From: Octopus vulgaris
Lineage: Eukaryota
Assembly (NCBI GenBank): GCA_951406725.2
Contig: OX597825.1
Location: 5,208,001 to 5,272,000 of the forward strand
DNA length: 64,000 bases
Direction: 5' to 3'
A model generated the notes under the pieces. That model saw only the letters and a program-made list of their open reading frames with translations, ran no database searches and was not told where the DNA came from. A program made the translations under genes and the position numbers. Position 1 is the stretch's first letter. Each line of letters begins with the position of its first letter. Below, one piece after another: positions 22,101 through 51,271 of this stretch.

Positions 22101-23101
22101 ATATTGTTTTCATTTTCTCTGTAGATAAACGAGATAAGTGTAGATATTTTTAGTGCTATTCTGATAGCATCAGCAAAGCATAGCCTTGGCTGTAGTTGCG
22201 GAAGTAACAACGAAAGCATCTCTAAATAAACCTACGATGGTTGGTAGGCGTTGGAAAACATAATTACCGAATGAATAATCAGAGACGCCATCTGCAAGCG
22301 AAACAACAGTTAAGTTAGTGCTAACATATCCGCAGGGCGAGGTGCGTGATAAAATAAGTACCCATTGAACATTGGGGTTAATGTAATCGACTAATACCCA
22401 CAATGGAAATTATTACTGGCCGTGTACCTATTGAAGAAAGTTTTATATAAGTTGTTAAGCTGGTAGATCAGTTACCAGGTTCGACCTGTCTATTAACGCT
22501 ATTATTCCGGCTTGGCATTCTGAGTTCAAATACCGTGAAGGTTGCATTCCACTTTATTTATTCTTTTTTTTGCTTTTTGTTTTTTGTTTGGGGTAAAATG
22601 AGTAACTGACTACACCCTCTCCCTAAAAGTTCCGACCTTGTGCCTTTAATAGAAAGGATCATTAGATGTGTTAAAGCAGGAGTTAATTACATTACTGTAT
22701 CTAGTTCCGTCATGTTATGCTTCGAATACAAAACCATGCCGTGTTCAAACTAATAGTTCATCTCTTCTGGTTTCGGAAAAGATGAGCTCCAGTTAATTCG
22801 TGTCAAGTTATACCAAGTAATAGACATTGTAATTCAATTATAATACCCTGTTCTTGGATCTGATCCAAATGTGTTGATGATATACACATCTTGTTAGACA
22901 ACGCACAACTGCAAAGTCTATCTAGCGTTTTAGAGTTAATCCGCCATTTCTTTCTAGATTAGCAAAATTTATGCTTCCAGCTTCCCAAAACACATGATAT
23001 ATATTAATTTCAAATGTTGGCACAAAGTCAACAGTTTCGGGGCACAGGGTAAGTGGATTACATCAACCCCCACTGCGCAACTGCTTCTCATTTTATCAAC
23101 C

Positions 23102-23329
23102 TATTCCTTTATTGCCCACAAGGGGCTAAACACAAAGGGGACAAACAAGGACAGACATAGGTATTAAGTCGATTACATCGACCCCAGTGCGTAACTGGTA
23201 CTTAATTTATCGACCCCGAAAGGATGAAAGGCAAAGTCGACCTCGGCGGAATTTGAACTCGGAACGTAACGGCAGACGAAATACCGCTAAGCATTTCGCC
23301 CGGCGTGCTAACGTTTCTGCCAGCTCGCC
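23102..23329 (-). mobile_element. SINE family A, tail a, inserted into an older family A copy
   Basis: TSD ttttatcaacc at 23091-23101 and 23330-23340; host copy spans about 23015-23440. Confidence 0.92.
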
Positions 23330-23454
23330 TTTTATCAACCCCAAAACGATGAAACGCAAAGTTGCCTTTGGCAGAATTTGAATCCAGAATATAAAATCAG
23401 AAGAAACGCTGCTAAAAATTTTGTTCGATGCTCTAACGATTATTTCCCTCTCTA

Positions 23455-23635: not shown

Positions 23636-24641
23636 TACATGATTGACGTTACGAATATGTACATCACAAAATGCAAGTTATTCAAATTTCGCTTTTCTGC
23701 TACTGGAAATAACCGCTTTAGTCACTTTACGTATTGCAATTTTCTTTAATTTTTCTCACCAAGATCGATCCGTTGGCCAAAATTTTTCAAAGTTCTTTTT
23801 GTTCAATTTTTTTTCTTGACTACTTGCTCATAAATGGAGATGGTTTTAAAATTTATACCAAAAAACTGTTTATTCAAACCTTTTCAAAGTAATTAAGTAA
23901 CTACTGCTAACCACTTGAGGTTTATTTTGTTATACCGAATAACTTATACATACTCGCTGTGTATGCTATAAATAACAACAAAATATCCCTTAATTTTTAA
24001 CTCTCATTTTTCATAAACTACATTGAAAACTAGATCACCCCACTCTCTTTAAGATAGCATGTTAGTACAAGCATAAATTTATTTATAAACACCAGTAACA
24101 CTCCCACAGATGAATCGTAACTGCCAAACCAAAATGTTTTCCAATCATGGCTCCAAATTGTTTCTTCCTGTTAATGTTTCATTATGAATTCCATCATGTC
24201 GTAACGTAAACGAATATCCATACAATATATTAATTATTTATTATTATCAAAATAGTTTGAATTCAAAATTAATCTTCAACAAAATTAAAATTTTACATTA
24301 AATTTATGTAGAAAATATTAAAATATTTAAAAATATTAATGTACGCAGGTAAAAATACGTTAAATACGTTTTTTCGTAATTTGTAACGCAATTAGTAGCG
24401 CTGTAGCAGTTATTGTATGATGTAATCACTAACAAATGATCAATTATGCAATAAATTTCAATAAGAATTAGAATTTCATGTAATTTCGGTTTCTGGTTCT
24501 TCCCAGTTTATGCCTTACATTTATGGATTGCATTTCTAATTTATTTTATCGAGTCATTTAATTTTATAGTAATTATAGTGCCTCAGTGATTTGTTTTTCG
24601 AAGAATGTGAATTCAAAATACTGAATTAATCAAATGCACGC

Positions 24642-24705
24642 GGGAGTAGTGGTTAAGAGCGCGGGCTACTAACTCCAAGATTCCGTGTTCGATTCCAAGC
24701 AGTAA

Positions 24706-24776
<71 letters not shown>

Positions 24777-24950
24777 TCAAAAAATACCTTAGGAATGAGA
24801 ACCCAGGTTCGAAATTTTCCAAAGACACCTGATGAAGGCTGGCGGGTATATCAGCCGAAACGTTGTGTTAACAACAAACAAGATGAGGACAAATATCCGT
24901 CAAATGTAAATAATGTAAATAATTCTTCATCTCTTAAATATAGAACTGTA
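24642..24950 (+). mobile_element. Family D element: tRNA-like head + (AAT)n + hammerhead-bearing tail
   Basis: gtagtggttaagagcgcgggctactaac...gttcgattcc; (AAT)n; hammerhead motif; ends ctcttaaatatagaactgta. Further copies at 27112-27475 and 47685-47807. Confidence 0.88.
24824..24869 (+). ncRNA. Minimal type I hammerhead ribozyme motif
   Basis: gacac-CTGATGA-a-ggctgg(cgggtata)tcagcc-GAAA-cg-TT-gtgtt. Palindromic AACGTT stem III typical of dimer-acting PLE hammerheads. Confidence 0.75.
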
Positions 24951-26199: not shown

Positions 26200-26314
26200 A
26201 TAGAGGGCACCTTTACACATAGATGCCTCACGCTAGGAGGGACTCTTAAAGTCAAAAGTTTTGACTTTAAGAGTCCCTCCTAACGTGAGGCATCTATGTG
26301 TAAGTACCCTCTAT
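26199..26314. mobile_element. Fold-back palindrome, probable TA-flanked MITE
   Basis: tatagagggcacctttacacatagatgcctcacgctaggagggactcttaaagtcaaaa-g-ttttgactttaagagtccctcctaacgtgaggcatctatgtgtaagtaccctctata. Confidence 0.8.
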
Positions 26315-27111: not shown

Positions 27112-27475
<364 letters not shown>

Positions 27476-27481
27476 TTAATA

Positions 27482-47535: not shown

Positions 47536-47684
47536 CTGTGTTGATGTAACAAAAACACGAATGATCCAACGAAGGATTATCTAGACAGGTCGTCGTTCTG
47601 CGAGAAAATAAAACAGCCAAGTCGCCCCATAAAGCATCAACTACTACTTATTAAAAGAAAAAAAGCCTAACAGGATTCATTGAA

Positions 47685-47807
47685 CATTATTTACATTTAA
47701 TGAATATTTATCCTCATCTTGTTTGTTGTTAACACAACGTTTCGGCTGATAAAACCTCCAGCCTTCATCAGGTGTCTTGGGGGAAATTTCGAAGCTGCGT
47801 TTTCATT
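47685..47807 (-). mobile_element. Family D tail fragment with intact hammerhead core (47731-47776)
   Basis: Minus strand: gacac-CTGATGA-a-ggctgg(aggtttta)tcagcc-GAAA-cg-TT-gtgtt. Confidence 0.85.
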
Positions 47808-50436: not shown

Positions 50437-50647
50437 TTAGAGGTCTAAGTAATTCCTCTTGCAATCAATCATTTAGCTGGTGACCTCCATTAATGGCTGA
50501 TCGAAGAGAGTAAGTTGAAGTCAGCTCAGAGTCCCGTCTGCGAAGTTTGCTTCAGACTGGACTCAGCTAAAGACACCCAAGACCCAAGCAATGGCCTTAA
50601 ACCGGAAAACGGATTAGGAGCGCCATTTTCTACAAAATATAATACCT

Positions 50648-50877
50648 ATTTCTTTATTACCCACAAGGGGCTAAGCAAAGAGGGGACAAACAAGGACAGA
50701 CAGGAGGATTAAGTCGATTATATCGACCCCAGTGCGTAACTGGTACTTAATTTATCGACCCCTAATGCATGAAAGGCAAAGTCGACCTCGGCGGAATTTG
50801 AACACAGAACGTAACGGAGGACAAAATACCGCTAAGCATTTCGCCCGATGTGCTAACGTTCCTGCCAACTCGCCGCC
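50648..50877 (-). mobile_element. SINE family A, tail a, with 21-bp TSD
   Basis: TSD tttctacaaaatataatacct at 50627-50647 and 50878-50898. Confidence 0.93.
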
Positions 50878-51271
50878 TTTCTACAAAATATAATACCTTC
50901 AACTGAAGTATAGAAACTTGAACGTAGTCTCTCCATTCCATGATTCGCAAAAAAAGCTTGCTTTTTGGTTTTACATCAGGCGTGAGAATCTAGACAAAGT
51001 TTCGATATCCGGTAGAACTGTTTAGATTGCATATACTAATATAATCATTGACATTAGGGCGGGGGGTTAGTAGGATCGTTAGCACCCCGGACAAACTGCT
51101 GAGCAGCATTTCGTCCGTCTTCGTGTTCTGAGTTAAAATTCCGGCGAGGTTGACGTAGCATTTTCATCCTTTCGGAGGTTGATAAGCTAATGATGTAATC
51201 CACTTAGCCCCCAACCCACGAAATTGCTGGCCTTGAGCCAAAATTTGAAATCATTATTATTGTTGCAGTTG

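Follow-up and report, generated by a model that had tools for sequence, protein, structure and literature searches.

Three copies of one dispersed repeat lie in the window, by which we mean the whole 64-kb stretch of DNA that was analysed. All of them were located where the original prediction had placed them: copy 1 on the forward strand, copies 2 and 3 on the reverse strand, the last represented by its tail only. Their parts, including those of a pseudo-LTR (pLTR) of a Penelope-like element (PLE), are as follows.

24635..24709, + strand: 5′ boundary of copy 1 (a hairpin remnant) and its tRNA-Arg-like head, the head itself at 24642-24709
24687-24695, + strand: B box of copy 1, GTTCGATTC
24710..24774, + strand: (AAT)n spacer of copy 1, a part whose length varies from copy to copy
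24795..24950, + strand: 5′ part of the Penelope ORF frame in copy 1, with ATG at 24795, open through the hammerhead and ending at the long pLTR 3′ end
24824..24869, + strand: minimal type I hammerhead motif of copy 1, core intact, predicted cut after 24864
24824-28 and 24865-69, + strand: stem I of this motif, GACAC and GTGTT
24829-35, + strand: its core CTGATGA, followed by a bulged A
24837-42 and 24851-56, + strand: its stem II, 6 bp
24857-60, + strand: its GAAA, followed by the palindromic ACGT and the GUU triplet
27116..27269, - strand: tail of copy 2 with the short 3′ end, hammerhead at 27217-27164
27270..27384, - strand: (AAT)n spacer of copy 2
27385..27456, - strand: tRNA-like head of copy 2, with A box TGGCGTAGTGG and B box GTTCGATTC
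27456..27477, + strand: inverted 20-22-nt piece of the pLTR 3′ end at the 5′ end of copy 2, a Penelope-type 5′ inversion
47681..47807, - strand: copy 3, a 5′-truncated pLTR tail with the short 3′ end, hammerhead at 47776-47731, core intact

The (AAT)n spacer is present in copies 1 and 2, as had been claimed. The tRNA-like head with A and B boxes holds for copy 2, which alone among the window copies keeps both boxes; in copy 1 the A box is damaged by a 5-nt deletion. The extent given earlier for copy 2 was right in that the repeat is there, but its outermost part (27456-27477) is the inverted piece of the element's 3′ end and not head. The tail of copy 1 ends at 24950, and the TTTT at 24815 is private to this copy. 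The hammerhead architecture described for copy 1, on the same strand as the head, could be mapped from stem I through CTGATGA and stem II to GAAA, and the cut site derived from the motif coincides with the one predicted, after 24864. Copies 1 and 3 have the motif in full. In copy 2, where a core mutation had been noticed, it carries both G5>A and C11.1>T and is predicted to be inactive. Rfam called neither a tRNA nor a hammerhead in the window, the listing being mostly microsatellite matches, nor on copy 1 or a related locus (L065) at E≤10. ARAGORN found no tRNA in the window, and at a 70% threshold it gave only a poor fold of the head consensus. The window also holds abundant further dispersed SINE-like repeat families of about 230-450 bp (600-839, 2193-2426, 23099-23336, 50641-50879 and others). 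A hairpin-like stretch at 26217-26299, probably an inverted repeat, matches Rfam mir-306 at 48 bits (gathering threshold 52) and at 42 on the opposite strand.

We regard it as virtually certain that the head, spacer and tail together constitute the pLTR of an autonomous Penelope/Poseidon-type element. Such an element sharing the tail was found in the searched genome (G000, 2.8 Gb), and the whole unit is its pLTR. Among the 30 loci nearest to copy 1, Penelope-type coding sequence lies directly upstream of the head in two (L029 and L019). When loci were picked by the 3′ end of the ORF, the stop codon was followed by the head at a distance of about 39 nt in 26 of 30, and the tail was likewise present in 26 of 30, one of these 30 loci being the query's own. 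When they were picked by the 5′ end of the ORF, the tail ran into the ORF start in 21 of 30, and in four (L106, L109, L111 and L119) the head and spacer were found upstream of the ORF as well, forming a partial tandem. This partial tandem arrangement is the defining trait of pLTRs. A beetle homologue (39% identical) used as a query in the same genome brought up this Penelope family in all 30 loci retrieved, and in 25 of these 30, picked by their reverse transcriptase (RT), the head follows the ORF. Mobilization by a Penelope RT, as originally proposed, is supported. The loci inspected show solo, inverted or ORF-linked arrangements.

The body consensus, derived from 47 aligned segments, is one open frame of 782 codons. 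Homologues are 36-67% identical, and one copy gives an RVT_1 match over the cut-off with an E value of 4e-9 (4.3e-9). Pfam called no endonuclease on the C-terminal pieces of the ORF; the C-terminus carries a Cys/His and Y-x-G-E-T pattern, which we take to be of the PLE endonuclease type, and one homologue (P0020) is named 'predicted GIY-YIG superfamily endonuclease'. Four short ORF pieces gave no Pfam match (0/4), a sequence search against PDB gave none, and viral contigs contained no relative. On inspection there is no Zn-finger-like linker between RT and endonuclease, unlike in a second PLE family of the same genome, and this argues against a Neptune/Nematis placement. That second family (L019:2660-3060 and L321-L350), which has a Cys-rich linker in this position and is presumably Neptune-like, has an open frame of 691 codons and 1,530 first-look candidates. 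Further PLE anatomy is also matched by the element, including the pLTRs and the inverted 5′ copies (PMC8557442 and PMC11167929, in the portions available). In 57 of 90 head-picked loci there is an inverted 5′ copy. The 3′ ends cluster at tail positions 135-144 and 162-168, some 30 nt from each other, in line with the optional 3′ tail of 30-40 bp in PLEs.

The short copies (n = 54) and the ORF-linked copies (n = 86) have the same consensus, with divergences of 5.7% and 6.7%, and none of the 168 positions compared survives correction as a difference between them (best p 0.003). No PLE ORF body lies within the window. What the window contains are accordingly pLTRs, either solo or truncated.

The 19-mer of the hammerhead core has 8,169 exact matches in the genome as against 0 for its reversed control, and so the core is not a product of chance. 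The head word has 5,148 exact matches, the 3′ tail word 11,919 and a UTR word 30 nt upstream of the head 894, each with 0 for the reversed control. Scaling the 8,169 matches by the exact-match rate (38/108) gives an estimate of about 23,000 copies with a hammerhead, probably a minimum. A sample of 27 stretches of 10 kb, taken arbitrarily from the genome, contained 4 tail matches. Most copies are solo pLTRs beginning at the head, and there are about eight head-bearing copies for each ORF-linked copy. The first 30 exact 19-mer matches on one contig (C1, 170000-1340000; L131-L160) lie within 1.33 Mb, a density of about 23 per Mb as compared with a genome mean of 2.9 per Mb, and an enrichment near the chromosome end is possible. 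The repeat is present in sequencing runs of five organisms (X1-X20, organisms A-E) and is thus likely to predate several species splits. In six loci (L003, L008, L010, L024, L170 and L197) the 3′ ends of other retroelements, presumably R4/Dong-like, lie in or beside the (AAT)n spacer, which suggests microsatellite-targeted insertion into the pLTR.

The hammerhead, considered here as a motif only, shows the minimal-type features that the accessible part of PMC4209133 lists for PLEs: the bulged base, the G10.1-C11.1 pair, the palindromic stem III and the overlap with the ORF start. The original prediction of a Penelope-type minimal hammerhead agrees with this. Among 76 distinct Poseidon-like ORFs from metagenome contigs, many of which end before the motif region could be reached, a hammerhead-like motif was found in 13 rows, 30-211 nt after the match. 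The ten of these that were compared have the same core, with stem II sequences that are wholly different yet paired. A full-length homologue encodes the same hammerhead motif in frame. Since the ORF frame is open through the hammerhead, the ribozyme motif would be encoded inside the N-terminus of the protein, and the predicted cut would part the first ATG from the ORF. In the window the stretch concerned is 24795-24950, and a distant homologue (P0008, residues 18-34) reads TPDxG...PKRCVNN.

In 109 genomic copies picked regardless of the state of the core, non-CpG divergence amounts to 4.0% for the core, 5.6% for the stems and 5.2% for the flanks. A core no more conserved than its flanks had been named beforehand as counting against the prediction, and formally this is the outcome, since there is no clear difference; similar divergence is, however, expected of insertions that decay neutrally, and the core values fit such decay. 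It had also been claimed that loop II varies while the stems are kept. Loop II is indeed unlike in each of the three window copies, but across the 109 copies the loop, bulge and H17 diverge by 5.8%, as compared with 5.6% for the stems. All 11 core bases are kept in 47 of 108 copies. The only non-CpG core variant above 10% is at the tolerant position N7 (19 of 105 copies), which suggests that the source elements kept the hammerhead motif; this variant occurs in short and ORF-linked copies alike. A master lineage with TTTT before the hammerhead was considered and ruled out, as only 1 of 108 and 3 of 64 copies have it; TTTT was frequent among 30 loci only because these had been chosen as nearest to copy 1.

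The self-processing part of the original prediction is doubtful for these copies. The predicted cut falls 3′ of the head but 5′ of both 3′ ends, where the RT starts, and cleavage would part the head from these ends; we infer that head-bearing copies arise from uncut RNA. In a first sample of genomic 5′ ends, 5 of 20 fell within -2 to +2 of the cleavage site, two of them from one palindromic locus. In a second set (n = 51, with at least two loci, L525 and L527, recurring from the first), 17 fell within 0 to +16 and 34 in the 78 nt upstream of the site. This weak step after the cleavage site is suggestive; short fragments or the stem II hairpin could explain it. Four loci (L102, L111, L112 and L125) have internal deletions that jump from the N-terminal region of the ORF to the tail, a few bases from the predicted cleavage site, as if the RT had switched template at a cut end.

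The best match of the head among 35 distinct tRNAs of the genome, which sample some isotypes only, is tRNA-Arg (z 7.7-8.1 versus shuffles), and the head consensus has intact A and B boxes at tRNA spacing. In 10 metagenome relatives there is no head-like sequence between the ORF and the hammerhead (z -2.2 to 2.3). We consider it probable that the unit, as the pLTR of an autonomous Penelope/Poseidon element, carries in its tRNA-derived head an internal Pol III promoter, and a Pol III start is likely for the short copies in particular, in keeping with the original prediction. Two indirect signs point to Pol III, namely a pile-up of 5′ ends at the head and the lack of T4 runs on the sense strand.

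The 5′ ends were determined in 90 loci taken in order along C1 by the head word, of which 77 also have the tail; head and tail are thus linked, as had been claimed. In 64 of the 90 the 5′ end lies within -19 to +11 of the tRNA +1, in 15 beyond -60. In contrast, the ends of 40 loci selected with the UTR word range from -39 to -904, values that are lower bounds on length as extension stops at indels, and by an arithmetic estimate a copy is over 10 times more likely, per base, to end at the head. In head-to-head pairs the junction is a small hairpin at about -7 to +5, and bases preceding +1 are retained; the template accordingly extended a few bases 5′ of +1, like a Pol III leader.

The hairpin and a structured head could, however, stop the RT without any promoter. 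The copies may be ordinary solo pLTRs in which the head is a passive tRNA- or SINE-derived insert; transcription would be by Pol II, stalling or fold-back of the RT at the hairpin and tRNA-like structure would pile up the 5′ ends, and the T4 deficit would be due to chance or an A-rich strand bias. We consider this unlikely, though it is the best of the alternatives. The many 5′ inversions, found in 57 of 90 copies and often located at the hairpin, are in its favour, as is the Penelope promoter of D. virilis, which the available part of PMC2377424 describes as internal, TATA-less and LINE-like. Yet the pile-up is seen in non-inverted copies as well (20 of 33 begin within -13 to +11 of the tRNA +1), both boxes are intact in the consensus, and folding of the head is no stronger than that of shuffled sequences (z +0.76).

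The T4 runs bear on the same choice. The sense strand of the pLTR plus body (a 2.6-kb consensus) has zero runs of T4 or longer, as compared with 29-31 runs of A4 or longer. The probability of finding none is 0.043 under a synonymous-codon shuffle and 0.003 with third bases drawn from four-fold sites, and it is 0.017, 0.11 and 0.24 under Markov models of orders 0, 1 and 2, the last two values favouring chance and thus the passive insert. GGGG and three CpG words are likewise absent from the consensus. In the second PLE family of the genome, the ORF has 9 T4 runs (7.8 expected). The 76 metagenome Poseidon-like ORFs, of similar T content, have 235 (188 expected), and among the 32 relatives with at least 2.5 expected, none has zero, which speaks against a passive insert; these relatives are single, partly decayed and non-independent copies. 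Thirty decayed copies of the head-bearing family have 16 T4 runs where 85 are expected. The deficit relative to relatives may be taken as support for Pol III, not as proof.

Among the sequencing runs listed as containing the repeat there is no RNA run. Raw reads of three RNA-seq runs from one study (X21-X23), with the same species label as some of the runs that contain the repeat, were mapped on one locus (L063) at 85% likeness. The repeat draws about 600-800 reads per million in these runs. Depth is equal on both strands, 63-68% of the reads continue into unrelated sequence, and the three runs show neither a pLTR intron nor any start or end site, including RNA ends at the predicted cut site. 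The reads reflect read-through of embedded copies and bear on neither Pol III nor cleavage, although read-through alone is also what a passive insert would give.

Two other readings appear very improbable. In one, the tRNA-like head would be a processing signal in a longer Pol II transcript, with an RNase P-type cut at +1, and not a promoter. Eight of the 90 5′ ends lie exactly at +1, as such a cut would predict, but the head-to-head junctions retain bases upstream of +1, the cloverleaf is poor with acceptor and anticodon stems that pair badly, and the missing T4 runs are left unexplained. The other, put forward in the original prediction and now largely refuted, is that of an independent non-autonomous SINE lineage with a PLE-derived tail and hammerhead self-processing: the short copies are SINE-like in behaviour, head-bearing copies outnumber ORF-linked ones about eightfold, and Sm-alpha offers a precedent in the excerpts consulted, but the coding element has the head in each of its two pLTRs and comprises the spacer and tail as well, no diagnostic site separates short from ORF-linked copies, with the N7 variant in both, cleavage would remove the head, and 13 tail-less heads have no other body in common. 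An nhmmer search of the genome's own loci found no separate SINE with the same head on another body, and the other SINE heads in these loci match the pLTR head weakly.

Under the Pol III reading, transcription of a short copy would start a few bases upstream of the head. The RT/endonuclease of the element would bind the tail, prime inside it at one of the two sites about 30 nt apart and copy back to the 5′ end of the RNA, where it would often fold back on the hairpin and give rise to head-to-head pairs. Since a minimal hammerhead is not expected to cut without a partner, an RNA with a single pLTR would stay uncut and its head would be copied. In the full-length element, the promoter in the head of the upstream pLTR would drive Pol III through the terminator-free ORF, producing a full-length RNA whose two hammerheads could act as a dimer and cleave it; of all the steps proposed, this final one is the least secure. 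In its strongest form, the proposal is that a coding element captured a tRNA-type promoter in its pLTR and purged the terminators from its 2.5-kb ORF, that Pol III makes both its mRNA and SINE-like short RNAs, and that a dimer-dependent hammerhead at the ORF start tells them apart. This would have to be regarded as tentative, with somewhat less than even chances. A Pol III RNA would be uncapped, which poses a translation problem for a coding element.

Much of the anatomy has counterparts in known elements, as far as the available portions of the sources describe them. PAc of Anolis (PMC11167929) and the PLEs with hammerheads (PMC4209133) have the same partial tandem of pLTRs and inverted 5′ copies. 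Known Penelope/Poseidon elements share the single-ORF plan with RT and C-terminal endonuclease (the endonuclease being putative here). In PAc, as here, there are two alternative 3′ ends within the ORF start, separated by about 30 nt, and the PLE hammerhead of the minimal type I overlaps the ORF start (PMC4209133) just as it does in the present element. For PAc, uncut RNA is described as the main substrate, with no RNA-seq reads ending at the hammerhead site, and the function of PLE hammerheads is left open (PMC11167929). Hammerheads in pLTRs, solo truncated copies and opposite-strand pairs have been described before (PMC4209133). Unlike the known Penelope/Poseidon elements, the present one has a tRNA-Arg-like head with A and B boxes and an (AAT)n spacer in its pLTR, its 5′ ends pile up at the head and the whole unit has no T4 run. 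The candidate promoter is thus of tRNA type, in contrast to the internal LINE-like promoter of Penelope in D. virilis (PMC2377424).

Repeats combining a tRNA-derived head and a hammerhead on one strand are also known, according to the excerpts consulted: Sm-alpha/Sj-alpha of Schistosoma (PMC6765202, PMC2770079) are apparently transcribed by Pol III and present in tens of thousands of copies. They are non-coding, often tandem, derived from tRNA-Gln and cut by the ribozyme into monomers, whereas the unit described here forms the terminal repeat of a coding element and occurs in solo or inverted copies. Non-LTR retrozymes (PMC7229834; bioRxiv 10.64898/2026.07.22.740005) are short units with type I hammerheads related to PLE pLTRs, described as PLE derivatives and thought to use PLE enzymes. 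They are defined by head-to-tail tandem repeats and circular RNA, and the available portions of these two sources do not mention a tRNA head; here, in contrast, the parent PLE is present in the same genome with the same sequence. The octopus SINEs OK, OR1 and OR2 (PMC4824008, PMC4758252, citing Ohshima and Okada 1994) have tRNA-derived heads and a presumably similar host; OR1 and OR2 are cited there as CORE-SINEs. In the literature searched, mostly outside subscription papers, Repbase, Dfam and the octopus genome paper (PMC4795812), no tRNA-type promoter in a PLE pLTR was found. The apparent novelty is that the pLTR of a protein-coding element contains a tRNA-Arg-like head bearing A and B boxes.

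If the proposal is true, a coding retroelement under a tRNA promoter would represent an unusual mode of transcription for a protein-coding transposon. Pol III normally produces short non-coding RNAs. The element would indicate that a long ORF can be made compatible with Pol III and would raise the question of how an uncapped RNA is translated; it would also provide a candidate role for the PLE hammerhead. It would be a living intermediate between PLEs and hammerhead SINEs of the Sm-alpha type or retrozymes, offering a concrete route from PLE pLTRs to tRNA-plus-hammerhead repeats and animal retrozymes. Even without Pol III, a repeat family with some 23,000 copies or more moves from the SINEs to the pLTRs of Penelope-like elements.
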